From positions 1 to 64,000 of IMG/VR virus record IMGVR_UViG_2974629863_000001: a stretch of DNA of 64,000 nucleotides, one strand, 5' to 3'. This document shows, piece after piece, positions 27,567 to 56,929 of this stretch. The position numbers and the translations under genes are program-made. The number at the start of each line of letters is the position of its first letter. Positions within the stretch are counted from its first letter, which is position 1. The DNA comes from a virus. Taxonomy: Duplodnaviria > Caudoviricetes. The notes beneath the pieces are model-generated. The model was not told the origin of the DNA. It searched no databases and saw nothing but the letters and a program-made list of their open reading frames with translations.

Positions 27567-28139
27567 ATGGAAAATGAATCAGCAGCATCGAGATTTACGC
27601 GCAAATGGACCAGTATTAGAGATGATCGTAAGGTTCGTGGTTGGGATAGTAGACCAGCAGAAAGAAAAGATCGAGAGTTTGTTGACTCGACACCAGCAGT
27701 AGAACCAAGTGAAAGAGTAGCTTGGTCAGGATCTATGATAGTAAAACCATACGGATCTACAGTAGATCTTCCACTCATTACAGAAAATGTAAGTGGGTAT
27801 GACTTTGGAATCTTTAGTCCATTTATCTCTGTACCAGATTTGACACTAACAAATTGTTCCGTTCCGGGAATCATGCCACCTTATGCAACAGAAGAGCCAA
27901 CTAAGGCATATGTAGCAACACTTGTCAATTGCACAATTACAGGATTCTCGCTTTACGGTTGCACAGTAATTAACGGAAACTTTACAGAAGTAAATGCAAT
28001 TCTAAAGAATCTACATGACACTCAGCCAGAGATGTATACAAAGGATCTTGTCAAATCTCAACTAAACTCTATTCGTGAATTCCAAATGATAGAGGTTGGC
28101 GGTAACTTCTTAACTGAAGCAGATGTAGACTCCTGGTAA
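27567..28139 (+). CDS. hypothetical protein; N-terminus shared with 29579..29758
   Basis: RFTRKW...RKVRGWDSRPAER. Confidence 0.7.
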   Translation: MENESAASRFTRKWTSIRDDRKVRGWDSRPAERKDREFVDSTPAVEPSERVAWSGSMIVKPYGSTVDLPLITENVSGYDFGIFSPFISVPDLTLTNCSVPGIMPPYATEEPTKAYVATLVNCTITGFSLYGCTVINGNFTEVNAILKNLHDTQPEMYTKDLVKSQLNSIREFQMIEVGGNFLTEADVDSW

Positions 28140-28156: not shown

Positions 28157-29557
28157 ATGTCTTATATAGAAATTTGGTCACCAAATAAAAATTCAGGTAC
28201 AGGTGGATTCAAGAAATCTATTATTGTTATCCACACGTCGGAACCAGGTCCGTATGCACCTGGTAGAAATCCAGGAACCGCAGCTAATCTAGGTAGATAC
28301 CTACAGAGCGCGAGCGTACAAGCAAGTTACCATATGATCGTTGATCCTAATGGTGATAAATGCAGATGCCTATCTAATGCAGATAGAGCTTGGGCAGCAG
28401 GCCCGATTGCTAATAATGAAGGATTCCATATCTGTGCAGTAGGTTGGGCAGCGTGGTCACGTCAAGAGTGGCTATCTATGCCTAAGATGCTAGACGGAAT
28501 GGCAGAAGAAATTGCTCTATGGTGTAAGGCAGAAGGAATCCCAGCACAATATGTTGTGGCTAAGGATCTGCCTAATGACATCTGGGGTATTACAACTCAT
28601 CTTCAGACAGCATTAGCTTGGAGACAAACAGATCATAGTGATCCAGGTCCAAACTTCCCGATTGATGTTTTGATTGAAAAGGTTAAAGCATATATGGGTG
28701 GAAGTGTTATTGCACCTGTTGAAAAGGAAACAGCTATTCAGGCTAAGCGCAGAATTGCAGATTGGCTGGGTAAGCGTGTTATTGATGCAGAGGAATTCCC
28801 AACGCCAGACGGTATCGGTAGATTCTGTGATTACGAAAACGGAATGATCTACTGGACACCAGCAACAGGCGCACAGGCAATGTCTAATGAAATGGTCGAT
28901 AAGTACGCAACAGTTGGCTACGAAAAGAGTTTCCTTGGATACCCTATCAATGACGTACACGATCTGCCAGATAAGGCCGGAAGAGCGCAAGCGTTCCAGA
29001 ATGGATCTATCTATTGGTCTGAGAAAACAAAAGCTCAGATTGTAAACGGAGTTATTGGAAACAAATGGGCTGCATCAGGTTGGGAAAAGGGAGAGCTAGG
29101 ATTCCCAACAACAGATGAAATCAAACTGCCAGACGGTGTAGGTATTATTCAGGTATTCGAAAAAGCACATATCTACTACACACCAGCAAGTGGAGCAGGA
29201 ATCATCAAGGGTCTTATTTGGGACGAGTTCACTAAGCAGAACTTCGAAAAGGGCTTAGGATATCCTCTTACAGATGAGATTGCTACTGCAAATAACTCAG
29301 GTGTATTCCAGAAGTTTGATTTTGCTCAGGTCTACTACAAGTGGGGAGATGCTAGAGCCTACTCTATCTTCAACGACATTCTAGATATTTATGCTAGATT
29401 CGGATACGAGACAGGTCGTCTAGGATACCCAACTTCTAATAGAACTCTAGTGGAAAAAACGAAGTGGCTTCAGAAATTCCAGGGTGGATCTATTCAAGTA
29501 GACACTAGTACTAAAGAAGTAGTACTAATTATTGAAGGAGAGTCCATTTCTGTATAA
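28157..29557 (+). CDS. endolysin: amidase-2 domain plus LGFP repeats
   Basis: VIHTSE, ASYH, HSDPGPNFP; repeated LGYP/LGFP motifs. Confidence 0.92.
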   Translation: MSYIEIWSPNKNSGTGGFKKSIIVIHTSEPGPYAPGRNPGTAANLGRYLQSASVQASYHMIVDPNGDKCRCLSNADRAWAAGPIANNEGFHICAVGWAAWSRQEWLSMPKMLDGMAEEIALWCKAEGIPAQYVVAKDLPNDIWGITTHLQTALAWRQTDHSDPGPNFPIDVLIEKVKAYMGGSVIAPVEKETAIQAKRRIADWLGKRVIDAEEFPTPDGIGRFCDYENGMIYWTPATGAQAMSNEMVDKYATVGYEKSFLGYPINDVHDLPDKAGRAQAFQNGSIYWSEKTKAQIVNGVIGNKWAASGWEKGELGFPTTDEIKLPDGVGIIQVFEKAHIYYTPASGAGIIKGLIWDEFTKQNFEKGLGYPLTDEIATANNSGVFQKFDFAQVYYKWGDARAYSIFNDILDIYARFGYETGRLGYPTSNRTLVEKTKWLQKFQGGSIQVDTSTKEVVLIIEGESISV

Positions 29558-29578
29558 TTAATGTTATAATTAATTATT

Positions 29579-29758
29579 ATGGAAACCGCCCAAGAAAGAT
29601 TTGAAAGAGCATGGGGTCATGTTAGCGTAGAAAGAAAACTTCGAGGATGGGATAGCCAGCCGGAAGAAAGACGGAAGCGTAGATACTCTCCTCATATTGA
29701 TTCAGAAGAGACGGTTACAAACATCTATTCCGAATTATATGAGGAGGTATACGAATAA
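29579..29758 (+). CDS. 59-aa putative adaptor with Tyr-rich tail (not in ORF track)
   Basis: METAQERFERAWGHVSVERKLRGWDSQPEER...NIYSELYEEVYE; TAATG-coupled to the next gene. Confidence 0.75.
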   Translation: METAQERFERAWGHVSVERKLRGWDSQPEERRKRRYSPHIDSEETVTNIYSELYEEVYE

Positions 29759-30153
29759 TGAGCCTAGAAGATATTAATAATCTGCCGAATGAAATTCCGG
29801 CAAAGCATGAAGGCCACAGGACAGACCACGAGATTATTCACGCTGGTCTAAAAGCCATTGTAGAAGAATTGGCTAATAAGCAATCAAAAGATCTTGAATT
29901 ATACAATATGGACGGTGAAGTAGACACTACAGTTCCATTAGGAGAATTTGTCAATGGGCTGTATTTTGCTATGCTCTATTCTCCAAATATTCAGGTGGAA
30001 ATACCTGGCTATTCTCGATATATTGATCGAGACTATGTAATCGTAGAAGAATTACCAGCTAATCCACGCATTGGAGCCATGTATTTACTTCGTGCTCCAG
30101 ATGGATCTATCACTTGGCATCTGCCAGAAATGTTTCCACCGGAGAATGTGTAA
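29758..30153 (+). CDS. putative virion protein with His-rich N-terminal module
   Basis: MSLEDINNLP...GHRTDHEIIHAGLK. Confidence 0.7.
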   Translation: MSLEDINNLPNEIPAKHEGHRTDHEIIHAGLKAIVEELANKQSKDLELYNMDGEVDTTVPLGEFVNGLYFAMLYSPNIQVEIPGYSRYIDRDYVIVEELPANPRIGAMYLLRAPDGSITWHLPEMFPPENV

Positions 30154-30596
30154 TGCAAAAATTAAAGAGCATATTCTCGCTAGAAGTAGACGATTTAGAA
30201 TTTACAACAGACTTAACTCAATTCGAACTTAAGTCAGATGAAGCTGACCAAGATGCTATGACATTTCTCGATTACAACTCGGGAGTCAATAGAGCCTGGA
30301 CCTTAACAGTTACATCGGCATTCGACGGTGGCTCAGTAGGATCACTTCATAGTTATCTATGGGATCATTCAGGGTCTACAACTCAATTCAAACTACAGCC
30401 TATCTCTGGGGCAGCTTCATTGTCTAAACCACAGTACATAGGAGATATACGAATCCCGTATAAGCCAGACTTAGTTGTAGAAGCAGGATCAGAATCAACA
30501 TTCGAATATGAATTCGAAGTAATCGGGCAACCGGTTAAGGTCGTAGACGGAGATACTCTAAACTTATATCTCCCACTCTATGATAGTTTTTATTAA
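30153..30596 (+). CDS. tail-tube paralog with Tyr-rich C-terminal extension
   Basis: SDEADQDAMTF, NRAWTLTVT, GSLHSYLWD, ESTFEYEFE shared with 42792..43208; ends NLYLPLYDSFY. Confidence 0.85.
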   Translation: MQKLKSIFSLEVDDLEFTTDLTQFELKSDEADQDAMTFLDYNSGVNRAWTLTVTSAFDGGSVGSLHSYLWDHSGSTTQFKLQPISGAASLSKPQYIGDIRIPYKPDLVVEAGSESTFEYEFEVIGQPVKVVDGDTLNLYLPLYDSFY

Positions 30597-30616
30597 AAAG
30601 AAAAGGAGTTGTAAAA

Positions 30617-32164
30617 ATGAGTTTAGATGACATTGATAATTTGCCCATTAGTATTTCTACTGGCAGATCAGGTCACACAGAAGATCACCAGACCATTCAC
30701 AAAGGTCTAAAGGATATTAAGAACTTGGTTCAAGATACAGGCATTAAAGCTGTCTATGGACCAAGATGGGTTTTTGACGGTGACTCAATTACTATTAACG
30801 GTATTGCTACCACAGAAACCACACAGGATAGAGGCGCATCGTGGACTACCGAATTAGCTAGACAGTCTTTCGGACGAATTAAGTTAATTTACAATGCAGC
30901 TATCTCAGGACAGAGAACAGACCAGGCATTAGCTCGATTTGATGCATACGTTGCTCCACAAGATCCAGATGTCGTTTTCCTTACGGCAGGTACCAATGAC
31001 GTTGGCGCAGCACGTGATATGTCAGCTTGGTTGGCAGACGTAGAAGCGTACAGGCTCAAGTGTGTAGCTATTGGAGCTAAGTTAATCGTAGGGTCTATTT
31101 GGCCTTCGGATAACAACAACCCGGCAGGCCGAAGTGCAATTTCTAGAACTTGGAATAACGCACTATACGCATGGGCAGAATCACACAATGTGCAATATGT
31201 ACCTTGGGAGAGACTAGCAAATCCAACAACCGGAGGTTGGCCTACAGGATGGTCTTCAGATGGATTGCACCCGACCTTACTAGATGGGTATACAACTATT
31301 GGTAAATTCGCTTGGGATTTCCTAGAACCTAGAACAGGATCACCTACAGTACGTAGAGCAATTTCTAACGGAGCGGATGCCATTCCTAACGGATTTTTCA
31401 CGGCGGGGTCAAATGTCCCTACTCCTACTCTGAGTGCAGGAACACCTACTACAGGAACAGGAACATTACCAGCAGGAGCATATTCATATAAGTTCACTTC
31501 TAGAACATATTGGGGAGAATCAATTCCGTCAGCAGCTCAGTCAGTAACATTGTCAGACGTTGGACAGATCACTATTCCTTATGCAACAGCAACAGGAGCA
31601 AGAGGATTCAGAGTATATAGAAAGGGACCATCCGATTCAGATTGGAAGTACCTCACATATATCTCAAGTGCTCTATCAGGTTCATTCATTGATAATGGTA
31701 GCTTCACAGCAGGTGCTAATATCTCAGGAGTTGCAACAGGCTTCATTCCAACAGGATTGACAGTTGGTAGTGCCACTCTTAAGAATCTAGGACAGGCATT
31801 CTTCACAGAGCCAGGAGTTCGAGGAAATATCTTTAGACTATATCCTTATGAAACCGGAACAGGTGCTCCGAATGATCACTTCGCTATTGCAGTGACACCA
31901 GGAGAGGTTTATGAGGTAAGTGCTCTAATTAGAACCAATGGAAATGCTGAAGGTGCTATTGTTGCACGATTCAGAGATGCTACTACTAACTTTGCTCAGA
32001 GTGTTGTCGCAAAGGGACGTTTAGTTAATTCATTTGGTCTAGCACATGCTAAGTTCACGATTCCAGCAGGAACAATTACGCTTAGACTCAGCTTCGAATT
32101 AACAGCAAGCTCCGATGGTGGATATTTAGATGTAGCAGAAGTTTCCGTCACCAAAGTAACCTAA
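30617..32164 (+). CDS. SGNH/GDSL hydrolase-containing putative virion appendage
   Basis: His-rich N-module; GDSIT, GTND, DGLHP; beta-sandwich-like C-terminal half. Confidence 0.8.
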   Translation: MSLDDIDNLPISISTGRSGHTEDHQTIHKGLKDIKNLVQDTGIKAVYGPRWVFDGDSITINGIATTETTQDRGASWTTELARQSFGRIKLIYNAAISGQRTDQALARFDAYVAPQDPDVVFLTAGTNDVGAARDMSAWLADVEAYRLKCVAIGAKLIVGSIWPSDNNNPAGRSAISRTWNNALYAWAESHNVQYVPWERLANPTTGGWPTGWSSDGLHPTLLDGYTTIGKFAWDFLEPRTGSPTVRRAISNGADAIPNGFFTAGSNVPTPTLSAGTPTTGTGTLPAGAYSYKFTSRTYWGESIPSAAQSVTLSDVGQITIPYATATGARGFRVYRKGPSDSDWKYLTYISSALSGSFIDNGSFTAGANISGVATGFIPTGLTVGSATLKNLGQAFFTEPGVRGNIFRLYPYETGTGAPNDHFAIAVTPGEVYEVSALIRTNGNAEGAIVARFRDATTNFAQSVVAKGRLVNSFGLAHAKFTIPAGTITLRLSFELTASSDGGYLDVAEVSVTKVT

Positions 32165-32183
32165 AATGTGGTAGAATGAATTT

Positions 32184-32331
32184 GTTCGAGAGAACACTTA
32201 CGGGTCTTGGTATGACTCAGCAGATTGATATCTGTTATACCATCTCGTGCAGGCTATACGGGTCAAGTTCCACGTATAGATGTGAATTTCGCTGCCTTAG
32301 GTAATGCAAAAGCCCCGGAAACGGGGTTTTT
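32184..32331 (+). ncRNA. candidate structured non-coding RNA
   Basis: Own extended -10 (TGGTAGAAT, 32169-77), four hairpins including a GAGA tetraloop, and a GAAA-capped terminator. Confidence 0.6.
32308..32331 (+). terminator. intrinsic terminator
   Basis: AAAAGCCCCG-GAAA-CGGGGTTTTT. Confidence 0.85.
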
Positions 32332-32355
32332 GTGTATCTGTGGTAAAATGGCTAT

Positions 32356-32802
32356 ATGCTCACCAATCCCAAACTAAAGTCCGTATTCAGCCTTTACGTC
32401 GATGATATCGATTTCGTAGCAGATGTATCTTCATTCGTTTTGAAGTCAGATAAGTTGGATGCAAAGCAAATTACGTTCGGCAAATACACACAGGGCATGG
32501 ACGTTAAGTGGACTTTAGGACTTAAGGGTTTATTCGATGGTGGTAGCGCAGGTTCGTTGCATGATTACTTATGGAATAACGCAGGACGAACAGTAACATT
32601 CATTCTTAAGCCTTTTCAAGGGTTCGATCCAAACACTAAGCGTTATTACACAGGACAAGTAAGAATTCCTTATCGTCCAGACATTAGCGTTAAGGCTGGA
32701 CAGTATTCTACATTCGATTATGAATTCAAAGTCGTAGGTCATCCGTCAAGAGGCGATCAGCCTAATGGATTCATGACTACAGGCTACTATGATTCATATT
32801 AA
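32356..32802 (+). CDS. second tail-tube paralog with Tyr-rich C-terminal extension
   Basis: KLKSVF, GSLHDYLWNNAG, YTGQVRIPYRPDI; ends GFMTTGYYDSY. Confidence 0.85.
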   Translation: MLTNPKLKSVFSLYVDDIDFVADVSSFVLKSDKLDAKQITFGKYTQGMDVKWTLGLKGLFDGGSAGSLHDYLWNNAGRTVTFILKPFQGFDPNTKRYYTGQVRIPYRPDISVKAGQYSTFDYEFKVVGHPSRGDQPNGFMTTGYYDSY

Positions 32803-32820
32803 GTCTGTTATAATGATATA

Positions 32821-34239
32821 ATGGCCCTCTCAGATATTGATCTTTTACCAAACACACCAGTACATGAAGGTGATGCAAACCACGACGGACTGCATGATCT
32901 TATTCATACTGGTATTAAGAGTCTAAAAACATTTATTACAGACTTAGTAGCGATCAATCTTAGAAAGACCACAGATCAAACTATTACAGGCATAAAGACA
33001 TTTGATTCTAGTCCTGTTATTCCTACAGACGTGCCAATTGCCGGAACAGCAGTAGTTAATAAGACATATGTAGAATCTAAGCTCAATCCTAAGAATACAA
33101 AGATTGATGCAGCTACACCAAACCCTACGACTAAATACTATCGTGGAGATAAGACTTGGGATGTCTTAGATAAGACTAAGATCCAATTACCGAACGCAGA
33201 AAACACAGCCGACACTGCAAAGCCTGTTACAGATGCTCTACAAACTGCACTTAACGACAAGCAGAATAATATTACTGCAGCAGACTCTACTTATTTCTAT
33301 CGCGGTGATAAGAACTGGGTATTCCTAGATAAAGATGCAGCAGGGCTGGATCAGCTAAACAATACTTCGGATGCTAATAAGCCTATCTCGAATCTAACTC
33401 AGACAGCTTTGAATGATACTCTGGATGATACAGACTCACTAAAGACTTCTGGAAATCAAACTATTGGTGGCATCAAACTATTCACTTCCGTTCCGAAACT
33501 AATCGGTACGTCTACAGTGGGGTACGTTTGGACTGCTACAAATGCAGACGGTACAGGTGCTTGGCAGGTAAAGGGAACTCCTATTACTACAGCCGACTGG
33601 GACATTATTTCTAGCAAGCCTACAACCTATCCACCAACTATCGGAACCTCAGGATCTACAGCCGCAGCAGGCAATCACACGCACGTGCTAGGAGACTTCG
33701 GACTCGATCAGCTCAACAACACATCAGACCTAGCAAAGCCTATTTCTAATGCTACTCAGGCAGCTCTAAATCTAAAAGCACCTAAGAGTCGCACGCTTGC
33801 CAACGGAACTGGAATTACGGGCGGTGGAGATTTAACGGAAGACAGAACTTTATCTCTGAGCAATAATGGAGTAAACGTAGACGAACTAGATATCATTTCT
33901 AGAAGAGAAGGTATTGCTTACGTAGTAACATTCAATACTAGAAAGGTAGGACTAGGAGACTACACAATGGGAATTCAAGTTCCTTATAAGTGCAATGTTG
34001 TTTCTGTTAAGTATAGAATGGGAACAGCAGATGCTTCTGGTACTACAACAGCAGAACTTAGAAAGAATGGTACAACAGTCTCAGGAACATCTCTAACAGC
34101 AACAACATCTCCTACCCCAACAACAGGAGCTTGGCCTTTTGCTAAAGATGATATTCTTACTGTTTATGTATCTGCAATTGGCACCGGACCAGGCAAGAGA
34201 CTTACTGCAGATATTATTCTAGAAAAAGTAAAAGAATAA
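32821..34239 (+). CDS. tail fiber/minor tail protein
   Basis: His-rich N-module; QTITGIKTF, YYRGDKTW and NTSDANKPIS repeats. Confidence 0.8.
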   Translation: MALSDIDLLPNTPVHEGDANHDGLHDLIHTGIKSLKTFITDLVAINLRKTTDQTITGIKTFDSSPVIPTDVPIAGTAVVNKTYVESKLNPKNTKIDAATPNPTTKYYRGDKTWDVLDKTKIQLPNAENTADTAKPVTDALQTALNDKQNNITAADSTYFYRGDKNWVFLDKDAAGLDQLNNTSDANKPISNLTQTALNDTLDDTDSLKTSGNQTIGGIKLFTSVPKLIGTSTVGYVWTATNADGTGAWQVKGTPITTADWDIISSKPTTYPPTIGTSGSTAAAGNHTHVLGDFGLDQLNNTSDLAKPISNATQAALNLKAPKSRTLANGTGITGGGDLTEDRTLSLSNNGVNVDELDIISRREGIAYVVTFNTRKVGLGDYTMGIQVPYKCNVVSVKYRMGTADASGTTTAELRKNGTTVSGTSLTATTSPTPTTGAWPFAKDDILTVYVSAIGTGPGKRLTADIILEKVKE

Positions 34240-34257
34240 TGTTACAATATAGGTACT

Positions 34258-35649
34258 ATGCCCTTATCAGATGTCGATCTATTACCCAATGATGTAAATC
34301 CAGGTTCTCCGAACCACACTAATCATCATGATGTGATCCATGCTGCACTTAAGGAACTAAAGACACTTTCTCAGACAGCAGACACCGATGGTGTAAAGCT
34401 AACTGGTGCTCAGACTATCTCAGGAATCAAAACATTCTCTGCTAGTCCTCTTGTACCTAATCCTACTGCAGCTACACATGCAGCTAATAAGCAATGGACA
34501 GATTCATTAGCCGCTACTTACGAACCTAATATTCCACTAGGAACAACTTCTCAGTATTGGCGTGGAGATAAGACTTGGGTTGCTCTAACTAAGGCAGCAG
34601 CAGGTCTAGGAAACGTAGATAATACTTCAGACGCCAACAAGCCTATTTCTACATTGCAGGCATCAGCATTAGCAGGTAAAGAACCTCTAATCTCAACTGG
34701 CACTATAGCTCAGTATTATCGTGGAGATAAAACTTGGGCCACTCTAAACAGGGCTGCAGTGGGTCTCGGAAACGTAGACAATACAGCCGATTTAGCGAAA
34801 CCTATTTCTACTGCTACTCAAACAGCACTAGATCTAAAGGCACCTAAGTCAGATGCAGTAACACTTACAACAGCTCAGTCTATTTCTGGCGTAAAGACAT
34901 TTACAGCAAGTCCTAAGATGGGTGGCACTGCAACAGTTGGTTGGGTCTGGACAGCTACAACTTCCGATGGTCAAGGATCTTGGCAGCTATTAGGTGTTCC
35001 CGCTGATTCTATGGACTGGGCAAATATTATCAATAAGCCAACTACATTTGCACCAATTATCGGTACTGGTGCAAGTCAGGCAGCAGCAGGTAACCACACT
35101 CACACAAAGGCCTCTATCGGTCTTGGAAATGTTGACAACACCAGCGATGCTAACAAGCCTATTTCAACCCTTACACAGGCCGAGCTAGATACAAAGCTCA
35201 CTTCTGCAAGAGCAGTGAACACAGGAACAGGACTAACGGGTGGTGGAGACCTTTCAACCAACCGGACTATTTCTATTGCGTCTGGTGGTGTCGGACTGAC
35301 ACAGCTTGCTTCAGAAGTTAAGCGTGAAGGATTCCCATTCCCTCAGACTATGGGTAAGCGTGCAGTTGGATACGGTGAATTCATCGATGGTATTTCTATT
35401 CCTTATGCATTTACTATTACATCGGTTAAATACCGTATGGGAACAGCGGACGCTTCAGGCACAACTACTTGTGAACTCAGAAAGAATGGCATAACAGTGT
35501 CGGGTACATCAGGGACAGCAGCACTTAACCCTACAGCAGTAACAGGATCTTGGTCATTCGCTAAGGATGACATCTTAACGGTTTACACATCGGCAATCGG
35601 AACAACGCCGGGTGAAAGATTAGTCGCAGACATTATAGGAACGAAATAA
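34258..35649 (+). CDS. tail fiber/minor tail protein, paralog of 32821..34239
   Basis: Same N-module and repeats; shared SVKYRMGTADASGTTTxELRKNG C-terminal domain. Confidence 0.8.
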   Translation: MPLSDVDLLPNDVNPGSPNHTNHHDVIHAALKELKTLSQTADTDGVKLTGAQTISGIKTFSASPLVPNPTAATHAANKQWTDSLAATYEPNIPLGTTSQYWRGDKTWVALTKAAAGLGNVDNTSDANKPISTLQASALAGKEPLISTGTIAQYYRGDKTWATLNRAAVGLGNVDNTADLAKPISTATQTALDLKAPKSDAVTLTTAQSISGVKTFTASPKMGGTATVGWVWTATTSDGQGSWQLLGVPADSMDWANIINKPTTFAPIIGTGASQAAAGNHTHTKASIGLGNVDNTSDANKPISTLTQAELDTKLTSARAVNTGTGLTGGGDLSTNRTISIASGGVGLTQLASEVKREGFPFPQTMGKRAVGYGEFIDGISIPYAFTITSVKYRMGTADASGTTTCELRKNGITVSGTSGTAALNPTAVTGSWSFAKDDILTVYTSAIGTTPGERLVADIIGTK

Positions 35650-36672
35650 ATGATTATAGTAAGACCAATGGCAAAGGTTAGTAGTGCCGCTGAGATTCTA
35701 GGAGTAACCACAGCAGGAACAGGAGGAGCAACAAGTTTAGCAGTTACTCTTCCAGATATTCCAGTTGGTGAAACATGGATTCTAATGGTAGGCGCAGGTT
35801 TCAATACCATGAACACTCCTTCTGGATGGAATTTAATTTATTCTCACACATCTGTAACGACTAGAACATATTTCTTTTCTAGAGTAAGACAATCTGGAGA
35901 TACTACAGCTTTGACAATGACATTTGGAGCTACTATTCCAGTTGCAGTAAGAGCTTATGGCATTGGAAATTGTGGACTCATTAGAGCAAATGGCAATGCA
36001 AGTGGTAGTCAGGTAACAGTTCACCCCGCTCCATCTATTGCAGCAACTATGGCAGGATCATTGACCTTTAGATTTGCATACAATCAATCAACAAGCGCAA
36101 CTAGAGCCTACACTTGGGATTCAGGCCCTACTACTGTAAATCCAGACTTTGTAATCACTGGCACTGGCATTATGGGATCTGTAGAACACGTTTCGCAGGG
36201 ACCAGAGCTGTATCCTATTTTGAATGCAACACACGCAACAGCTATTTCATATTCAGTTGGATCTATTTCAATAAGTCCTAAATTAGATCAGGGTATTCCT
36301 AGCACTCAGAGGGGAACACTAACTGCAAACCAAACAACTACTGTTGGATCATATGCTGAACTTGGACCACTAACAGCCGGAACAAATGCAACTGTTTCTG
36401 GAAATGCTCTTGTATTAAATGGCACAGGTAATGCTACTTTGACTGTAAGCACAAGCAAGCAGGGTGGATTTGGTAACCTAACAATTAGAGCTAAGGTAAA
36501 TGGAGCTATAGTAGCAGAAGGAACAGCTTCCAGTTCAGGTGTATTTAGTGCATCTGTTACTTCAGGTTTTGAAGCTGGGTCACTTCTAACCATAGAAGCA
36601 ATGGCAACTACAGCTACTTCTAGTGCCAATGTTCTTACGACTTCTACGTATATTGAAATTGTTCCTATTTAG
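35650..36672 (+). CDS. putative receptor-binding/minor tail protein
   Basis: Thr/Ser/Gly-rich beta protein abutting the fiber gene. Confidence 0.6.
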   Translation: MIIVRPMAKVSSAAEILGVTTAGTGGATSLAVTLPDIPVGETWILMVGAGFNTMNTPSGWNLIYSHTSVTTRTYFFSRVRQSGDTTALTMTFGATIPVAVRAYGIGNCGLIRANGNASGSQVTVHPAPSIAATMAGSLTFRFAYNQSTSATRAYTWDSGPTTVNPDFVITGTGIMGSVEHVSQGPELYPILNATHATAISYSVGSISISPKLDQGIPSTQRGTLTANQTTTVGSYAELGPLTAGTNATVSGNALVLNGTGNATLTVSTSKQGGFGNLTIRAKVNGAIVAEGTASSSGVFSASVTSGFEAGSLLTIEAMATTATSSANVLTTSTYIEIVPI

Positions 36673-38616: not shown

Positions 38617-39924
38617 ATGAAAGATTTCCAAAAGCTTTTATGGAGCCGTAACGGTAGCCAAGTTGATATTAGTTTAAATCTACAAAAGATAGATGCAACT
38701 AATAGGGTTATCGTAGGCTTTGCCACTTTGGATAATGTTGACTTTGCCGATGACATTGTTCCCCTAGATGCTGCGCTTAAGGCGTTCGAATCATTTAGGG
38801 GCAATGTCAGATTCCAACACGATGCTAAAAAGCCTGTAGGCCGAGTTATCGATTTTGCACCATCGTCTTTTTATGATGAGAAGACAAAAGAAACACACCA
38901 GGGCATTCAAGTCGCTGTGCGTATTTCCGATGGGGCAGAAGACGTTTGGAAGATGTGCCTTGATGAGACTCTTTCGGGTTTTAGTATTGGTGGGTCTGTT
39001 AAAAAGGCCAAAAAGGTTTGGTCCACTGAACTTAAGAAGAATATTCAGGTAATCGAAGAATTCATGCTTACAGAGCTATCAGTTGTTGATAGTCCTATGA
39101 ACGGATTAGCTAATATTATTGCAATTCATAAATCCTTAGACTATGGTACTATAGAAAAAGATTATGACAGCTTTAATCTATTCTGGTGTGGGTTCGATAG
39201 AATCGCTTCACAAGCACATGGACAAGAATCAAATTGTCCTCAGTGTGGAGAGGCAATGGCTAATATGGGACATACCGAGAAGAACGCTGACATTGCAAAA
39301 CAACTTGAAAAAGTTTTTTCAAATGAAACGGAGGGAGGTCAACCCAATATGGATAAATCAACAGAAGATATTACAGTAGAAAAGAACATTGACGGAGAAG
39401 ACGAAGTAGCATCAGTAGATGAAGTTGCTGTCGAGGAAGTCGAACCAGAAGTAACCGAAGATGAGGTTGTTGAAGAAGACGCAGAGGACGAAACGGAAGA
39501 CGAGACCGATAAGGTCGAAGATGAAGTAGAAGCTGAAGTTGTCGCTGAAGAGCCGGAAGTTGAGAAATCAGCGGATGCAACAGCAGAACTAGCAGAACTA
39601 GTTAAGGCATTACAAAATACTCTGTCAGAGAAGAACGACGGGATCGCTAAGAGTCATGATGAACTCAAAGAAGAATTCGCACGTATCTCCGATGAGATGA
39701 CTAAGAAGCTAGAAGGTATCTCAGAGAACTACGGAACTCTAGAAAAGAGTTTAGAGGATCTTAAGTCTGAGCTAAAGAAAACTGAAGATGGTCTTGGTGA
39801 TGTTACCAAGCGACTAGATAGCGTAGTGGAGTCTACGGCATTCAAAAAGTCACTTGATAGCTCCAACAGATCAGAGCCAAAAGAAGACGGCTCAGCACTA
39901 TTTCACAAAGTCTTCACGCTTTAA
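38617..39924 (+). CDS. HK97-type prohead protease fused to a zinc ribbon and scaffold-like tail
   Basis: VRFQH, GFSIGG, ELSVVDSP; CxxD..CPQC; acidic linker and coiled coil. Confidence 0.85.
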   Translation: MKDFQKLLWSRNGSQVDISLNLQKIDATNRVIVGFATLDNVDFADDIVPLDAALKAFESFRGNVRFQHDAKKPVGRVIDFAPSSFYDEKTKETHQGIQVAVRISDGAEDVWKMCLDETLSGFSIGGSVKKAKKVWSTELKKNIQVIEEFMLTELSVVDSPMNGLANIIAIHKSLDYGTIEKDYDSFNLFWCGFDRIASQAHGQESNCPQCGEAMANMGHTEKNADIAKQLEKVFSNETEGGQPNMDKSTEDITVEKNIDGEDEVASVDEVAVEEVEPEVTEDEVVEEDAEDETEDETDKVEDEVEAEVVAEEPEVEKSADATAELAELVKALQNTLSEKNDGIAKSHDELKEEFARISDEMTKKLEGISENYGTLEKSLEDLKSELKKTEDGLGDVTKRLDSVVESTAFKKSLDSSNRSEPKEDGSALFHKVFTL

Positions 39925-42791: not shown

Positions 42792-43208
42792 ATGGCTTTA
42801 ACAAATGGAAAACTTAAGAGTATTTTCGCGCTCAAGGTGGGTGCAGTTGACTACACCGGCGACGTTACTCAGTTCGAAGTTACTTCAGACGAAGCTGATC
42901 AGGATGCTATGACTTTCGCAGAATACAACGCGGGTACAAACCGTGCTTGGACTCTAACAGTTACAGCAGCTTGGGATGGTGGTTCACAGGGTTCGCTTCA
43001 CGCTTACCTATGGGATAATGCCGGAACTACAGCAGACTTTGATATTCAGCCTGTTGGTGGAGTAGTTTCCGCCACCAAGCCAAAGTATACAGGTCAAGTT
43101 CGTCTACCCCAGCGCCCAGACATCAACGTCGAAGCTGGTAACGAATCAACATTCGAGTACGAGTTCGAAATCATTGGCGAACCTAATAAGGTTACGTCCG
43201 CGACCTAA
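42792..43208 (+). CDS. major tail (tube) protein
   Basis: Strong AGGAGG SD; canonical position before chaperone and tape measure. Confidence 0.8.
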   Translation: MALTNGKLKSIFALKVGAVDYTGDVTQFEVTSDEADQDAMTFAEYNAGTNRAWTLTVTAAWDGGSQGSLHAYLWDNAGTTADFDIQPVGGVVSATKPKYTGQVRLPQRPDINVEAGNESTFEYEFEIIGEPNKVTSAT

Positions 43209-50000: not shown

Positions 50001-51495
50001 TGAAATCTCATCAGTTCTAGACACTTTCACAGCTAATGCAACTGGAATCCAGACAGCTTGGCAGAATGCCGGAACACAGATCGGTACTGCATTCCAGACA
50101 GGTGTAGATCAGACCAAGGCTCTTGTTACTTCTAAGATTCAAGAAGTCAAGGGTATAATTGATGCACCTATTGCAGCACAGCCACAAATTGATATGCCTG
50201 CAGTTCTCGGAGGAAACTTCGATTCAGTTCTAGCAGCAATCAATGTTAAGAAGACTGAATTCGAGCAGGCCTTTACAGGTATTGGCAACATTGCTACTAC
50301 TACAGGTCCACAGATCCAGGCTAATTGGTCCCAGATGGGTACATCAATGGGGCAGTCATTTACTGGTGCTCTAGATCAGTCTAAGGCTCTAATGCAGCAA
50401 GCTGTAGATGCAGCTAAGCAACAGCTAGAGCTTCCACAGACATTCACACCGAATGTTCAGGCTCTTCCACAGGCAATGGATCAGAACCTTAATGGTCTTG
50501 TTTCATCTATCGAACAGAAGAAGCCAGAAGTTGACGCAGCGATGCAGCAGCTTACTCAGGGTGCAGCTACATCTATTCCACCTACGACAAGCAAGCACAA
50601 CATTGAAAGCAACATTGCAGAAGTTACAGCTCAGATCAATTCTCTAAACGGAATGGTTACAAGCTCAACTCACATGATCAATGTTGTTACAATGGGTGGC
50701 GGTGGAATCGCTGGTATTGCTGGTATTGCAGGAATCGGCGCAGCCGGAATGTCTGGTGCCGCGCCTATTATGGGAATGGCAGGAGCAGCAGGAGAAGGTG
50801 AGGGATTAACTGGTGCTCTAGGTGCTGGTGGAATGACTTCAGATTTCCGCTACACAAATGGTTCCGGTGGATCACTACTACAGATTTCTAACCTTGTTAA
50901 GAATGGAATTATCCAAGCTTGGGAAGGCCTCGGAGAAGAAGTAGGAACTTCATTCTCCAATGGAATCAGCAACTCTCAGGTTCTAGTTGTAGACGCTATC
51001 GGTGATATTGTCGGTCTAGCTGGCAAGACAATTACTGTTAAGCAACTAGTTGATGTTGAAGGAACTGTAGTCGGATCTATTGTTGAAGTTGGTGACACAA
51101 TCTCAGCCATTACAGGTGTTACAAGTTCAGTTGGTAATCTAGAATCAGTTCTAGGTTCTGTTGGAAACGTAATCAGCTCTGTAGGTGGATTCGGTGGTGC
51201 TCTTGGTGTTCTAGGTCCAATCGGACAGATCATTAGTTCACTAGGAACTCTATTCGGACTATTTGGAGGTTGGTTCGGTCAGCATAAGGGTGGAGCTTAT
51301 GTTTCATCTGGTTCACTAAATGAATCAGGTCAAATGGTTCACTACAACACTCAGCAGACTGTTAATAATCACTTCGATGGTGGATTACTCGGTGACCCAG
51401 AGCGTCAGGCTAAGAAGGTGCTAGATGTGCTAGAATTAGCCGGTAGTTCTAGAAGAGCTAACGCAGTACTAGGAAACGGAGAGTTATCAGTTTAA
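44077..51495 (+). CDS. tape measure protein
   Basis: 2472 aa, repetitive, hydrophobic Ala/Gly segment, follows the chaperone. Confidence 0.9.
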   Translation: MSNTVKVEIQGSESVSDAVDKAIAKLQQLKDRNIDINVDTDKAERKIDDLEKKIKALRDGNVDIDIDVDTSKADTKIDKLQAKLVALSDGTAKVDVDTKAARDKLTYLNARISALSENTPSIDVDTTKARAKLTYLHGRLKALGDEKVSIDVDTEKARDKIRYLHNRMAELGDKRIGVDIDTEKARDKIRYLKNSFKELTDANVAIDVDNSMALAKIAAVQTALDSLTDRTINIDVNDEAVGRAVRNSRGRNTTRTDSEFVTRELQRARDNGLDVDVNANFDDYDQEVKKRQKTTIKYEVDTTSLRDVFDSDKYKIGTVYKKDGEIIELEANVDLDDIKNLDAEVNRLNNKRIKFNVETTFDEDGEALERWVAVGRHRMRIAVDTEIDDDHVLALARGIQERQFVVHGQIDERVSEFMRRLDNNPNKRIRYTIETRDFDGQLMHVLREDNKVIKIIPNTDAFERDLADIEKNRTIRYDIERNDIDGEIRDFLNIGDRTIDVDVDVHDAEAVAKLALLTRRRTADVDVDVDRNGRLSNSLRNINTGFGTMGRLAGRVTSAFAGMTTRIPVLGGLFKSLNMANSGLGDMAANGGKIAGIAGPIGQAAIAVGAAALSMQIFSAVGVAGTTALTGGLYLTMAAMGAVSGVASALAGVVGGGLAAGFIYFASKAPEVSAAFDDLGNHVTSVMEDISSVVAPSLTRAAGMMSSSFDMMRPSLERMATGTSKLVDNLSGKLPAVAQALGPALEQAFRAGSKHLSVIGDALPGIITGFGNFMDKLGSVEVVKAATSVWNALPGIIEGTGTAIEKVAAGYNNLREFFSSSDLAPLKEGWAALKDTIGNINWTPLINGTKDAMNALGGFMESIDGENVEQMFTGIVNGVEGLTSAAEKLNLDGFLAGLSQVFGAFGKITDGMASIAKPALDGLNWIGDKVAGLFGADPIKIPTDVDLTKAQGKINEIKNMDIAPILIKLKIEELNEADNPTRKPMNFPVVPEVKPGSFSSLLDSLKQDTIPVNVDPKMNDISNLQSSLTGLNLTSDVIPKLKNATSLQQVADAIRLEIPMNPKLQNNADVQSLLDSIDAILKVKPDFEGGIGELQALLMAQDLVAKARAELENPESIADALATLDNILKVTPELSEVGSIQELLTGIKTFLNVTPQMRDTGALQSAIEGITTTIKPDISIDEGIGKIKDALSKINLEVNPELADFKADLEGQLAALEGIMKVRPELNGDSSIQSALAALNSWVRVTPRLDDADSISNLISMLEAVINVNPELNAGGVGAILDILRGMNAEFPVTPNLQQPPVMPGLDVTLNPTVPQSPIAVPGVVDPLNPPKGGLGDVFRIPGTVDPLNVPKTTSPLEVPGSITPLQLPSGIPGFNVPIKGTLDVDGIARSLENVTPSIGVLPTITNGSQILDQLNSMNAQIEAGVTIKDTGSVLDTLNNLEATVKANPEMGNADAIIAAIAAIRAILKPDVEPKFDGIMGKVPDLPAIDQPVKLKKDLSEAQTALPPIVQEVIVRRKAEPSVAANLQTIETKTVRLIPDTSALQAITIPPITVQVTVASNAAEIQGLISMIPLSITTQHTVQSNAAAVAGSIQQIPLSMNTQHTVSSNVADIDAQVRSIPATMLTEHTTTTNTQATIDLVNSIPKSSQTDHTVNTNVDSALSRIRSLSGQNTSSTHTVNVVVNGGGGLPGGASISAFSGMAGIGAAPMGMMGAASDGSSLFGAAGATGGLSNNFKFSQKTGGSLLKVATIVKGGIVKAWEDVGSSGGKSFMEGLSESLDAISKIINEVVNIGNSIKELMEALNPKPEGLENAAKDIADASKDIDKNLSNTADSVKTNSEAINKAVQFNPDVQGLQNIWGQVGQKIEGAFSKGIGSAQNTIGTAFSEIQATLSKPFQNLPEINLDQIVKGDFSSIFAGIEQKKAEFTQAFESAKQTALNAVPGLNDAFNQVGRDIGAAFGWGVDESIANMRAKNPEISSVLDTFTANATGIQTAWQNAGTQIGTAFQTGVDQTKALVTSKIQEVKGIIDAPIAAQPQIDMPAVLGGNFDSVLAAINVKKTEFEQAFTGIGNIATTTGPQIQANWSQMGTSMGQSFTGALDQSKALMQQAVDAAKQQLELPQTFTPNVQALPQAMDQNLNGLVSSIEQKKPEVDAAMQQLTQGAATSIPPTTSKHNIESNIAEVTAQINSLNGMVTSSTHMINVVTMGGGGIAGIAGIAGIGAAGMSGAAPIMGMAGAAGEGEGLTGALGAGGMTSDFRYTNGSGGSLLQISNLVKNGIIQAWEGLGEEVGTSFSNGISNSQVLVVDAIGDIVGLAGKTITVKQLVDVEGTVVGSIVEVGDTISAITGVTSSVGNLESVLGSVGNVISSVGGFGGALGVLGPIGQIISSLGTLFGLFGGWFGQHKGGAYVSSGSLNESGQMVHYNTQQTVNNHFDGGLLGDPERQAKKVLDVLELAGSSRRANAVLGNGELSV

Positions 51496-54176
51496 TGTAT
51501 GACAAGATAGATACAGGTGACATTACACTTCAAGTCGAGTCAACAAGAGAAAACCGAGAAGCAACGGATGCCTTTGGGAATAGTTCAATAGCTATCTCCC
51601 AGGGCGCATTCGACAGAGGTCTAAGCCAGGATGGTGTCTCTTACACTGAGATGCGAATGAATAAGAACGGTGACGTTTATAATATTTATGACTTCACCGA
51701 CATCACTGGATGGGTTTCCGATGCTGGTTATCCTGGAACAGTTATTACCAATAATGGCTTGGTCATTCAGCAGTCCGCACAGGTGGTGCTAGAATTCAAA
51801 GGCGCATTCGGTAATGGATTCTTCTCGTCTCGTGTTAACTCATATGTGAGAATTTTAGTAAATGGCAGCGTTGTTAAGACAGCTTCAGGTAATGCTAACT
51901 TAGGCATTTACCATGTTCTCTTTCTAAAGGCAGGCGATGTTGTTAAGATTCAGGCTAGATGTACTAACTACTGGTTTGACGCATCTAGACTTCGTGGTGG
52001 ACGAGATACTTACTTAAAGGTTCGTTTGAATAAGCCTGGTGAATTCGACTTCGAAGGTGACCTAGCTTGGCCGGAAAACTCTGGTTTTGCTTATGTTGGT
52101 AACAACAAATGGGTTGTTGCTCCAAGAGCTAAGAAGGGTAAGAATCCAATTGTCTCAGCAGAAGACGGAGGACCAGATTCATACGGATATTCATATGAAG
52201 GATACACCGTTGGACCTGTTATCGCTCAGTCAAAGGTTCCTTGGCCTGTTAAGGGTGGACAAACAGTAAACTTTAGTGGTCAGTTCATATCTTTGGGTAA
52301 TCCCAGAGAGAAGTCAGATTTCTCAGGTGACACACTAGTTCTTTACAGATTCAGTCTTTGGGGATCTGGCGTTACTACTGACGAATACGGCACAGAAACA
52401 GAAAACAAAATTGAATTGATGTATTACCAGGCGAGCAACAGCACATCTGGAACTACAAACTACAATATTTCTGGCATTCCATCTGCTACAGTACCCGAAG
52501 GAATTACTCATCTGTACTTTACAGTGTCATGTGTATATCAGGCAGACGGAACCTATGGAACTATCAACTTCGAGGTTCTAGAAGGATCAATGGTCGTTTC
52601 CAAAGCGTCATACTTCGGAGCTTCTGTTGTTAACCCAATTCAGGTTATCATCAATCAGCCTTCCAGCATACAGCCTGTGTATACGCATCCTCTTTCTAAG
52701 ACAGGTGTTGCTTTTAAGAATCCTGGTGGGTTCCTAAATGTATATGAGAATGCACAGCTTACATTCTTTGGTGCGCCAGATGCGCCTACAACAGTACAAG
52801 CCTATAACTACACTCCTGGTGGAGGAACTGGTTCATGGATTGGTACTTACTCAGCGGCAGCAAATGAAAGAAAGACTGTATCTATTACGCCCGGAACGCC
52901 GGGAGGGACAGTGCAGCTACTAGTAATATCAGGAACTACGTATGTAGAGAAGCTAGTTAACTCTGAGTCGGATACACTTAATTCAACTACAGATCAGTTA
53001 AGAAAACTAACATTCGTAGATATTGAAGATGATGCAAGTAGAATCTCTATTCTAAAAGAAGAGGGAGATAAGTCTACAGGAACGATTGACTTTGCTACTG
53101 CAACATTAGACCCAGCAGTATCGCCACTTCTAAAGCCGGGTAAGATCGTTAGAGTTCTAGGTCGTCACTATGGAAATGGTAATACTACCAAGCCTGCAGG
53201 ATGGACTGGACCAGCATTGTACTCAACTATATTTACTGGCAAGGTAAAGAGAGTTACAAGTGGTTATTCTTATGAAGATGATCCAGTTGTTCAAATTACT
53301 CTATATGACGTTTATGATTCACTTCAGACTATTAAAACAGAGTTTGCCTCTGATCAGATGGTCAAATATGGAGCATGGTTTAACCGTGTTGGATCTAGTG
53401 TCATATATAACGATATTGATTGGGCTGGATCAGCTAAGGATGAGTCTACTGTTCCTAATAAGTTCGTATATGAACCTAGTGCATGGGGAAATATCAGTCT
53501 AGCCGACTCTGTTTCTATGACTAGAAATGCTAATAAATGGTGGGTTATTGTAGATAGATTTAACAAGATGAGAATTATGACTTCTCTTAATCCAACCAAG
53601 AAGTACACTCTTACAGATGGTACTGTTGCCGGTGATCTGAATTATGGTAGATTCTCTAGAGGATCAGACACAGATTCAGTAATCAATAAGGTCAATGTTC
53701 AAGAGTATGTTCTAGACATTAAGGATCTTAAAGGAAGAACTCTTGCTGCATCTTCAGAACCACCAGCGGATCTAGACTTTGTTAGATCAAAGCAACAGAC
53801 TGCTACCTTCTCTAATAAGACAAGTGTGAACTCATATGGAGAGTTCTCCAAGTCTTTTGACGTTGTTAGAGGCAATGGTAACTACTTGGATCTTTCAAGC
53901 GGTTATACCGGAGCTAACTTCAAGTCTTGGGCAGAAGCAATCCTTGCAGAAAGATCTGAACCTACCATCAATATTTCAGAGTTGAATGTTCCAATTAAAA
54001 ACAGTAACGATATTCGAAAGATTTCTGAACTAGAAATTCTAGACAAGGTTGACATTGTATACAAGGGAGTTACTCAAACTTCTAGAGTCAGGGAGATTGA
54101 ACACACGATTATTCCTGGCAGATGGTATACAGAAATACGCTTTGACTCCAAGGGCGATATGACCTACTGGGGCTAG
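51495..54176 (+). CDS. minor tail (tip/hub) protein
   Basis: TAATG-coupled to the tape measure gene; IFTGKV and IEHTI..GRW motifs. Confidence 0.75.
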   Translation: MYDKIDTGDITLQVESTRENREATDAFGNSSIAISQGAFDRGLSQDGVSYTEMRMNKNGDVYNIYDFTDITGWVSDAGYPGTVITNNGLVIQQSAQVVLEFKGAFGNGFFSSRVNSYVRILVNGSVVKTASGNANLGIYHVLFLKAGDVVKIQARCTNYWFDASRLRGGRDTYLKVRLNKPGEFDFEGDLAWPENSGFAYVGNNKWVVAPRAKKGKNPIVSAEDGGPDSYGYSYEGYTVGPVIAQSKVPWPVKGGQTVNFSGQFISLGNPREKSDFSGDTLVLYRFSLWGSGVTTDEYGTETENKIELMYYQASNSTSGTTNYNISGIPSATVPEGITHLYFTVSCVYQADGTYGTINFEVLEGSMVVSKASYFGASVVNPIQVIINQPSSIQPVYTHPLSKTGVAFKNPGGFLNVYENAQLTFFGAPDAPTTVQAYNYTPGGGTGSWIGTYSAAANERKTVSITPGTPGGTVQLLVISGTTYVEKLVNSESDTLNSTTDQLRKLTFVDIEDDASRISILKEEGDKSTGTIDFATATLDPAVSPLLKPGKIVRVLGRHYGNGNTTKPAGWTGPALYSTIFTGKVKRVTSGYSYEDDPVVQITLYDVYDSLQTIKTEFASDQMVKYGAWFNRVGSSVIYNDIDWAGSAKDESTVPNKFVYEPSAWGNISLADSVSMTRNANKWWVIVDRFNKMRIMTSLNPTKKYTLTDGTVAGDLNYGRFSRGSDTDSVINKVNVQEYVLDIKDLKGRTLAASSEPPADLDFVRSKQQTATFSNKTSVNSYGEFSKSFDVVRGNGNYLDLSSGYTGANFKSWAEAILAERSEPTINISELNVPIKNSNDIRKISELEILDKVDIVYKGVTQTSRVREIEHTIIPGRWYTEIRFDSKGDMTYWG

Positions 54177-54193: not shown

Positions 54194-54541
54194 ATGAAAT
54201 ATCCCACAGGCGTTTTTATCGAACACGACGGTTCAATCTATAGAGTCTCAGGCAATAAGTTGTACCCTCTGCTATCGTGGAGGGCAACTTTGTCTTGGCA
54301 TCAGCCGATTATCCCAGCAGAATACATCTTTGATTATGAGCGATCAGAAGCAAGACTTGGATTCAGGCCTACTTCGATCTTAGAGTCATGTGTAGATGGA
54401 AGATTCTACTTCATTGATGGTTTTCAGAAGAGACTCATCACCACTCCCGACTTCTGGGATTTAGGTTTTAATAAGTTTGAAAAGTTTGTAGTATCACAAG
54501 AAGAATTAGATTTCCATAAAGACGGAGAACCAATTGAGTAA
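54194..54541 (+). CDS. hypothetical protein with an internal two-fold repeat
   Basis: GSIYRVSGNK / GRFYFIDGFQKR. Confidence 0.7.
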   Translation: MKYPTGVFIEHDGSIYRVSGNKLYPLLSWRATLSWHQPIIPAEYIFDYERSEARLGFRPTSILESCVDGRFYFIDGFQKRLITTPDFWDLGFNKFEKFVVSQEELDFHKDGEPIE

Positions 54542-56137: not shown

Positions 56138-56138
56138 C

Positions 56139-56528
56139 ATGAATGATTATTACAGAAGTCTTGCACAAGTTCTTATGACTCGTGGAAGTCTTGTAAAGGG
56201 TAAATCTTATTACGGTGGATTCAATAACTATGAAGATTCTATTTACAAACATGCAAATGTTGAACGACACGAGTACGGATTCTACAAAGACCTAAAAGGC
56301 AGCCAACCTAAATGCGGATCTTGGAAGTCACTTACAGACATAGATGAGCAATCTTCTTATGTTTTCGCAGGAACCTTCGTTGACTCAGAAGAAGCGTATT
56401 ACGTTCAAGGCCTTCTTAGCTGCAACTGCGGGGAGATAGAAGAAGCCAACCTAGTCTACGATGGAACTATGTCTGAGTTAATCCAGTATGTAGTAGGAGA
56501 AGCACCAAAGATTAATTACCTAGCTTAG
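56139..56528 (+). CDS. hypothetical protein
   Basis: ORF with CNCG motif. Confidence 0.65.
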   Translation: MNDYYRSLAQVLMTRGSLVKGKSYYGGFNNYEDSIYKHANVERHEYGFYKDLKGSQPKCGSWKSLTDIDEQSSYVFAGTFVDSEEAYYVQGLLSCNCGEIEEANLVYDGTMSELIQYVVGEAPKINYLA

Positions 56529-56580
56529 TGCTATAATGGGTGTATGTAGGAGACTACAAATACATTCATTAGGAGAAAAC

Positions 56581-56874: not shown

Positions 56875-56929
56875 ATTATTTGGTATAATAAGATAGGCCC
56901 TTCGGGGTCTATACTTATTTGGAGATACA

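Follow-up and report, generated by a model that had tools for sequence, protein, structure and literature searches.

An aromatic terminal peptide and a histidine-bearing N-terminal module as a candidate docking pair for tail proteins of Rhodococcus phage Weasels2 and its relatives

In modular receptor-binding proteins, one N-terminal element is combined with C-terminal cargo that can be swapped, as in TP901-1 BppL, whose N-terminus is held by BppU, and in the T7 gp17-type and P22-type anchors. Phages SP6 and K1-5, with their gp37-type adaptors, and phages CBA120 and G7C, with their branched tailspikes, carry different spikes or fibres on one virion through dedicated adaptors encoded by neighbouring genes, and this cargo is exchangeable as well. 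Material can also be appended after the tube fold of a tail tube protein and be exposed on the surface, as is the case for the Ig-like domain of lambda gpV, for SPP1 gp17.1* and for the carbohydrate-binding modules of lactococcal tube proteins. For lambda, the domain behind the tube fold is located on the outside of the tube (PMC12617516). Accessory fibres outside the tube and near the tip, rather than on the hub, are held by side-fibre collars, namely the N-terminal collar of lambda Stf at the gpV-gpM junction, T5 p132 and DT57C LtfC (PMC12617516). In mycobacteriophage Mysterious, a C-terminal 'anchor loop' of the hub latches accessory baseplate proteins (PMC13252515). Here we describe a conserved two-motif system, consisting of a short aromatic terminal peptide and an N-terminal module of ~35 residues with three histidines (the N-module), in a 64,000-nucleotide stretch of viral DNA (positions 1 to 64,000 of IMG/VR record IMGVR_UViG_2974629863_000001; hereafter the window). 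The window phage is Rhodococcus phage Weasels2 of cluster CB.

This system is like other modular fibre-attachment systems and differs from them by its portable terminal peptide of ~10 residues and by the use of duplicated tube subunits as carriers. Compared with the BppL, T7 gp17 and P22-type anchors, the common N-terminal element comprises only ~35 residues with an invariant H-x3-H-x3-H, and its proposed partner is a linear peptide of ~10 residues, not a folded socket domain. No homology to the SP6/K1-5 and CBA120/G7C adaptors was found in Pfam or PHROG; here, duplicates of the tube protein, a mini-protein of 59 amino acids (aa) or the tail tip share one portable terminal peptide. The lambda, T5 and DT57C collars are built from a folded beta-domain, 12 copies of which wrap standard tube rings, whereas in Weasels2 the tube subunit itself is duplicated and bears the proposed docking site; as in the collars, the accessory fibres are proposed to stand outside the tube near the tip. 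The domains of lambda gpV, SPP1 and the lactococcal phages are fused covalently to a single tube protein, whereas in Weasels2 only a short peptide is appended, on a separate paralog, and the displayed proteins have genes of their own. A precedent for docking is provided by the anchor loop of Mysterious, which resembles the tip proteins of small Rhodococcus proviruses that end in the aromatic peptide, although no sequence relationship has been shown and the loop is not known as a portable motif on other carriers. No paper describing either motif was found in a literature search.

The DNA of the region is 80% identical to that of Rhodococcus phages Grayson and Peregrin, genus Weaselvirus. In the paper describing the cluster CB phages, of which Weasels2 is the third one covered, related major tail subunit genes were reported, 'oddly' two in Peregrin and Grayson and three in Weasels2, and many of the minor tail genes were located upstream of the portal gene (PMC13313380). 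The genes and motifs in question are the following:

29579 to 29758, plus strand: 59-aa mini-adaptor with an N-terminal RGWD module and an aromatic/acidic C-terminal peptide (phrog_20413, E 2e-30)
29726 to 29755, plus strand: C-terminal peptide of the mini-adaptor, Y-S-E-L-Y-E-E-V-Y-E (protein end IYSELYEEVYE)
29758 to 30153, plus strand: 131-aa cargo protein, N-module followed by a small C-terminal domain (alignments; weak match to phrog_32325, tail protein)
29758 to 29862, plus strand: N-module of the 131-aa cargo protein, residues 1-35
30153 to 30596, plus strand: tube paralog 1, 147 aa (phrog_4574, E 3e-42)
30567 to 30593, plus strand: C-terminal extension of tube paralog 1, ending Y-L-P-L-Y-D-S-F-Y
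30617 to 32164, plus strand: 515-aa cargo protein, N-module, SGNH/GDSL esterase and C-terminal domain (PF13472; phrog_19622, esterase/lipase)
32356 to 32802, plus strand: tube paralog 2, 148 aa (phrog_4574, E 2e-40)
32767 to 32799, plus strand: tail of tube paralog 2, whose C-terminal extension ...GDQPNGFMTTGYYDSY ends GFMTTGYYDSY
32821 to 34239, plus strand: fibre 1, 472 aa, N-module with a one-residue insertion followed by fibre repeats (phrog_38418 and several tail-fibre PHROGs)
34258 to 35649, plus strand: fibre 2, 463 aa, N-module followed by fibre repeats (tail-fibre and minor-tail PHROGs)

The genes starting at 29579, 29758 and 30153 are joined by successive one-base TAATG overlaps, an arrangement that indicates translational coupling.

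The N-module is common to the proteins encoded at 29758, 30617, 32821 and 34258, where it starts at residue 1 and reads M-x-L-x-D-[IV]-x-x-L-P…H-x3-H-x3-H-x-x-[LI]-K. A preliminary description of the window, made from the letters alone, had pointed out these four proteins with their common ~35-aa start, and this was borne out by the alignment, in which 10 positions in 42 columns are invariant (M1, L3, D5, L9, P10, H20, H24, I27, H28 and K32). The motif formula given there is likewise present, but its histidine part is better written H-x3-H-x3-H. The four proteins are alike in their first ~35 residues only, with no similarity beyond, and no other gene in the whole 135-kb genome encodes the module. 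Among 19 diverse homologues, M1, L3, L9, P10 and the three histidines are all invariant. The histidines are spaced i, i+4, i+8, with a lysine just after, at the start of a helix of low confidence in an AlphaFold2 (AF2) model.

The cargo behind the module was assigned as anticipated. Specifically, the 30617 protein is an SGNH/GDSL hydrolase (PF13472, 88.8 bits against a cut-off of 32.9, E 8e-25; PF00657, 35.3 against 23.6), with the block I catalytic serine motif F-D-G-D-S-I near residue 55, inside the Pfam match. The 32821 and 34258 proteins match tail-fibre and minor-tail PHROGs, which agrees with their designation as fibres, and a weak BppL_N-like stretch follows the N-module in both. That the cargo is interchangeable also held up in relatives: in Grayson and Peregrin, the same N-module heads proteins of 629 and 525 aa with pectate-lyase-type motifs (Grayson gp71, Peregrin gp69), and a tailspike and a hydrolase or fibre begin with it in NiceHouse and Trina of cluster CE. 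With a profile built from the four modules of the window, a search of 1.84 billion representative proteins gave 68 matches at E ≤ 1e-3. In ~60 of them, clusters at 50% identity with other cargo, the module begins at residues 1-5, and protein length ranges from 58 to 782 aa; the remaining matches are multi-stretch histidine-rich sequences. The metagenomic proteins retrieved include fibres, pectate-lyase-like spikes, SGNH esterases, beta-propeller-like domains and small knobs. Three pairs among the metagenomic N-module and tube-paralog matches (P0012/P0095, P0002/P0097 and P0092/P0100) are suggestive in that their longest contigs are equally long. Pfam has no family for the N-module, and PDB sequence searches gave no relative of the module or the fibre; a weak PDB match of the module/fibre query to a C2H2 zinc-finger helix (E 0.7) was set aside as chance. 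The N-module is a widespread and previously undescribed N-terminal module of actinobacteriophage minor tail proteins.

The second motif is the aromatic tail peptide, for which the consensus over all carriers is Ar-x-[DE]-Φ-Ar-x-[DE]-x-Ar-COOH, Ar standing for Y, F or W. Hydrophobic residues at 1, 4, 5, 8 and 9 follow the pattern of a short amphipathic helix, and acidic residues stand at 3 and 7. The peptide was found on six kinds of carrier and at both termini. RGWD mini-proteins of CB phages, CE phages and the metagenomic relative L008 form one kind: the homologues of the 59-aa adaptor in Grayson, Peregrin, NiceHouse, Trina, L005 and L008 all end Y-x3-Y-x3-Y, the L008 protein (61 aa, RGWD-like) ending Y-x3-Y-x3-Y-T and being encoded by a gene that overlaps an N-module spike gene. 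The second kind is a 45-aa Trina protein, the gene of which lies between two N-module genes. Three further kinds are tube paralogs, i.e. a metagenomic clade of 147-aa proteins like 30153, ending [YF]-x3-[YFI]-x3-[YF]; a clade of 148-149-aa proteins like 32356, with the variant G-[FY]-[ML]-[TI]-x-G-Y-Y-[DG]-x-Y; and a type of 164-174 aa in which Y-x3-Y-x3-Y stands at the N-terminus and the C-terminal tail is degenerate. The last type nests within the C-tailed 32356-type clade in the tree, and in the IMG/VR contig L016 its gene is directly upstream of an N-module fibre gene, next to the portal gene. The sixth kind is the tail-tip protein of small Rhodococcus proviruses, which bears an extension of ~18 residues ending Ar-x-D-x-Ar-x-D-x-Ar in 11/11 homologues of 57-100% identity. 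The peptide has changed place among unrelated carriers and from one protein terminus to the other.

The tails are conserved at least as well as the folded cores, while the linkers are variable; for the 32356 type, mean column identity over nine homologues was 0.86 in the tail and 0.73 in the core. In the 135-kb genome, Y-x3-Y-x3-Y-(x)-COOH ends only 2 of the 1125 open reading frames (ORFs) with 30 aa or more, each of the two immediately preceding an N-module gene, and only seven ORFs have at least three tyrosines in their last 11 residues, all three adaptors among them. The background of the loose tail motif was 5 in ~1290 other ORFs of the examined loci (~0.4%). In being terminal, disordered alone, conserved beside a variable linker and portable between unrelated proteins, the tail has the traits of a short linear motif. 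A 140-aa ORF of the early arm (3431-3853), ending ...YLHQWFYKYF, is the only other strict aromatic-tail match in the genome; it lies in an unrelated context and is probably a chance match.

Lack of co-occurrence of the two motifs in other genomes had been named beforehand as an outcome that would refute the docking hypothesis, which came through this test strongly. Of the 11 records in which a carrier is present, 10 have an N-module protein as well, usually encoded by the adjacent gene, and these records comprise cluster CB and CE phages, metagenomic relatives and small Rhodococcus proviruses. NiceHouse and Trina have a single tube gene, and their peptides are on RGWD mini-proteins and the 45-aa protein, the genes of which alternate with those of N-module spikes. 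In the complete 45.8-kb provirus of L006, a 166-aa protein encoded directly upstream of the N-module gene ends W-x3-F-x3-F-VDDH; the idea that L006 lacks a tailed neighbour was dropped after this protein was found with a looser pattern. The small proviruses have a single tube gene, and in three of them (G001, G002 and G003) an N-module fibre gene lies at the opposite end of the structural module, ~14 kb from the carrier. The metagenome scan with alignment A3 gave one locus, and viral-contig scans gave only the L006 contig again with alignment A4 and only known CE phages with A6. There was no match in genome-contig scans with alignments A4 and A1, in viral-contig scans with alignment A3 and protein P0012, or in a tblastn search of P0014 against phages, and a word-index search with the 59-aa protein returned only itself.

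The small integrated elements G001-G004 are 18-20-kb IMG/VR records from Rhodococcus/Rhodococcoides fascians genomes (L012-L015, L018-L020, L023-L024), with an integrase seen only in G004. Their full terminase-portal-capsid-tube-tape-measure-tip module is related to that of CB phages; no replication or lysis genes were among the listed ORFs, and the elements may be satellites, elements like gene transfer agents (GTAs) or defective prophages. In the N-module of G002 and G003, a serine replaces the middle histidine (H-x3-S-x3-H; L019 1501-1632, minus strand, and L020), and the open frame shows no ATG, GTG or TTG start ahead of it. The tip tails of the same two elements read Y-x3-W-x3-W instead of Y-x3-Y-x3-Y, so that the serine-variant module and the tryptophan tail may covary, albeit in few cases.

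Two of the carriers in the window had been described as paralogs of a true tube protein that lacks the tail, and this was confirmed by their common phrog_4574 match and by alignment. Two further features are needed here:

42792 to 43208, plus strand: canonical major tail (tube) protein, 138 aa (phrog_4574, E 9e-47)
51495 to 54176, plus strand: tail-tip protein, 893 aa (BLASTP to provirus tip P0113)

The 30153 and 32356 proteins are 63% and 50% identical, respectively, to the 42792 protein, which ends 10-13 residues earlier and is without the aromatic tail. Its gene belongs to the head-tail operon, where it precedes those for the chaperones and the tape measure. In the tree, the tube homologues split into tail-less true tube proteins, with 42792 in this clade, and the three tailed kinds; tube paralog 1 is absent from Grayson and Peregrin. 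The AF2 model of 32356, built on a 21-sequence alignment, has a tube fold with a mean predicted local distance difference test (pLDDT) score of 75.6, and Foldseek matched it with probability 1.00 to tube chains of lambda gpV (gpV-N), YDC107, 80alpha, NF5 and a GTA, at template modelling (TM) scores of ~0.45-0.55. Residues 138-148 form a coil with pLDDT <50, as expected of a linear motif. By analogy with the lambda domain mentioned above, the extension of the tube paralogs would point outward.

The tip protein of Weasels2 is a full-length orthologue of the provirus tips (32% identity by BLASTP, E 3e-127, with the alignment to P0113 reaching residue 892 of 893 against 933 of 951) that stops ~18 residues short and is without the peptide. 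The tip orthologues of Grayson and G005, both with tube paralogs, likewise lack the ~18-residue extension. The peptide is thus on the tip in cases of a single tube gene, and on tube paralogs or mini-proteins in cases where the tip is without it. The 893-aa protein is the sole tail gene past the tape measure, which places the genes of the entire host-recognition set ahead of the portal gene. The N-terminal sequences of the next ORFs (54194-57418) do not look tail-like, and one of them has metallophosphoesterase-like motifs by eye.

Docking of the aromatic tail peptide onto the N-module, by which the cargo would be fastened to the tail, is in our opinion the best explanation of these observations and a rather probable one. 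The cargo would comprise the two fibres, the SGNH esterase and the small knob, and in relatives pectate-lyase-type spikes and other enzymes, all headed by the ~35-residue histidine module, while the carriers would be tail parts or tail-tethered proteins, i.e. the two duplicated tube subunits, the 59-aa RGWD protein and the provirus tail tip. Upon binding, the peptide would fold, probably into an amphipathic helix of two to three turns, against the histidine-bearing base of a cargo protein that is probably trimeric. The matching i, i+4, i+8 periodicity of the two motifs and their complementary chemistry, acidic-aromatic on one side and His/Lys on the other, would fit such a helix-helix contact. 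The tube paralogs would be incorporated into the tube, the RGWD module would serve as the anchor of the mini-adaptor, and docking would place the cargo on rings of tube paralogs, on the mini-adaptor or on the tip. We infer the peptide-module contact, its geometry and stoichiometry and the incorporation of the paralogs from the patterns above.

Several observations speak against docking or against its simplest form. The provirus G004 has an integrase and a tailed tip, but no N-module or fibre protein was found in its 20-kb record. The tail of tube paralog 2 (G-Y-Y-D-x-Y) departs from the consensus. It had been observed that the gene just upstream of each of the first three modules ends in a Tyr/acidic tail; this is so in the window, albeit with this divergent third tail, but it is not universal in relatives. 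A pairing of one adaptor with one cargo protein downstream of it is not general: fibre 34258 has no carrier gene of its own upstream, Grayson has two tails for four modules, in NiceHouse the adaptor is downstream, and the provirus carrier is ~14 kb away from the fibre. When the in-frame read-through of 32356-33060 (tube paralog 2 and fibre 1, with the stop codon as Gly) was modelled with AF2, the N-module half had pLDDT <50 with a low-confidence helix at fibre residues 22-52, and no confident docking was seen; this second half was without alignment depth because MAFFT failed to place the N-module homologues there, and we do not count the outcome as negative. In addition, it is not known whether virions contain all major tail subunit paralogs (PMC13313380).

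Conceivably, both motifs are real assembly signals that bind a third shared component, either a virion protein or an assembly factor, and not each other, their co-occurrence reflecting one assembly pathway. Co-occurrence and adjacency cannot tell direct from indirect links, and both the unequal counts of tails and modules and the lack of docking in the read-through fusion, where the N-module half had pLDDT <50 and no alignment depth, are compatible with this idea. It is unlikely, however, as no third family is common to all lineages with both motifs, the flanking genes being different in CB phages, CE phages, the proviruses and L006, and as the two motifs match in periodicity and are opposite in charge character. 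Alternatively, the N-module could contact the folded body of the tail protein while the aromatic tail does a separate job, such as a ring-to-ring or tube-to-tip contact, host adhesion or service as a modification site. The retained tube-like fold means that the paralogs could form special rings, and C-terminal extensions of tube proteins serve decoration in other phages. O-glycosylated extensions are typically rich in Ser and Thr, unlike the present tails, which are rich in Tyr, Phe and acidic residues. Virion glycosylation has been suggested for these phages (PMC13313380), which encode a glycosyltransferase. A ring-contact role is hard to reconcile with the spread of the peptide over carriers and termini, since mini-proteins without a tube fold and the tip protein bear it too, and one paralog type has it N-terminally; moreover, the peptide accompanies N-module genes. 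We regard a separate role of the tail as quite unlikely.

The tailed proteins might also be non-virion helpers of fibre assembly, or tube-derived scaffolds, that hold the N-module proteins while these fold or trimerise and come off afterwards. Small genes adjoining fibre genes often encode assembly chaperones, the genes are translationally coupled, and, as noted, the presence of the paralogs in virions is not known (PMC13313380). This, too, is quite unlikely in view of the proviruses, where the tail tip itself is the carrier and is homologous over its full length to the Weasels2 protein whose gene comes right after that of the tape measure. Furthermore, the three kinds of tube paralog are 50-60% identical to the polymerising subunit and keep its fold, the latter as modelled for 32356. 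No Tfa-like or other chaperone family was matched in Pfam or PHROG; specifically, the 59-aa protein has no Pfam match, its only PHROG is phrog_20413 (function unknown), and homology to the Tfa or gp38-type chaperone families was not found. A coincidence of composition, combining Tyr-rich protein ends in an AT-rich phage with a common fibre N-terminus, could be invoked because both motifs are short and because the ORF at 3431-3853 also matches the strict tail pattern. It is effectively refuted by the genome-wide counts, by the presence of the pair in every examined lineage against a background of 5 in ~1290 ORFs, and by a tail that is kept across homologues of 57-100% identity and relocated between termini and carriers.

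In a bolder extension of the docking hypothesis, the peptide and the histidine module would be a self-sufficient, transferable tag and socket that has been moved among the tip, tube paralogs (at either terminus) and mini-adaptors, and in cluster CB the tail shaft would have dedicated rings of tube paralogs that present exchangeable fibres and cell-wall enzymes, with the tip reduced to a single protein. We put this forward tentatively, as a possibility that may well not hold in full. If true, it would represent a new host-recognition architecture of siphophages and a natural docking pair for phage engineering. Docking itself would give a concrete role to the 'odd' extra major tail protein genes of cluster CB, unexplained in the describing paper, and would explain why fibre and enzyme genes precede the portal gene instead of following the tape measure. 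If the contact is real, it would be a very small portable attachment pair, ~10 against ~35 residues, that has been transplanted in nature between carriers and termini; it would inform how phages swap host-recognition parts and offer a handle for placing new cargo on actinobacteriophage tails.

The RGWD module of the mini-adaptor recurs in a further gene upstream:

27567 to 28139, plus strand: 190-aa RGWD protein (phrog_20413 matches residues 2-44, E 9e-17)

At its N-terminus (~45 residues) this protein aligns with the 59-aa adaptor as the same RGWD module (RF-R-W...RK-RGWD--P-ER), after which come a domain of its own of ~140 aa and no aromatic tail.

Near its N-terminus, the tip protein contains a domain of ~125 residues (residues 53-176; window 51651-52022) that is homologous to a free-standing 140-aa protein of L016 (2227-2649; 31% identity, E 2e-11), the gene of which is located upstream of the tube paralog and fibre genes. 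A 159-aa protein encoded after the L012 fibre gene (L012 401-880) resembles this domain by eye, and the C-terminus of a 340-aa window protein (35650-36672) is weakly like it (E 0.04).

The window capsid maturation protease (38617-39924) is without an F-x3-F-x3-Y end, in which the capsid maturation protease/scaffold proteins of the CE phages terminate (L003 16710-17855, L004 16769-18082 and L009 10316-11422), examples being ...FIGVFSGKYV and ...FQGLFSGDYGRE.

A hairpin followed by a T-run is present at ~32308-32335, between the esterase gene and that of tube paralog 2. Extended -10-like boxes (TGnTATAAT or TGnTAAAAT) end 6-8 nt before the ATG of the genes at 29579, 32356 and 32821 (window 29557-29578, 32337-32355 and 32803-32820), and such a box likewise precedes the ATG of NiceHouse gp52 (L003 8960-9000). 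The proximity of these boxes to the start codons suggests leaderless or near-leaderless late transcripts.

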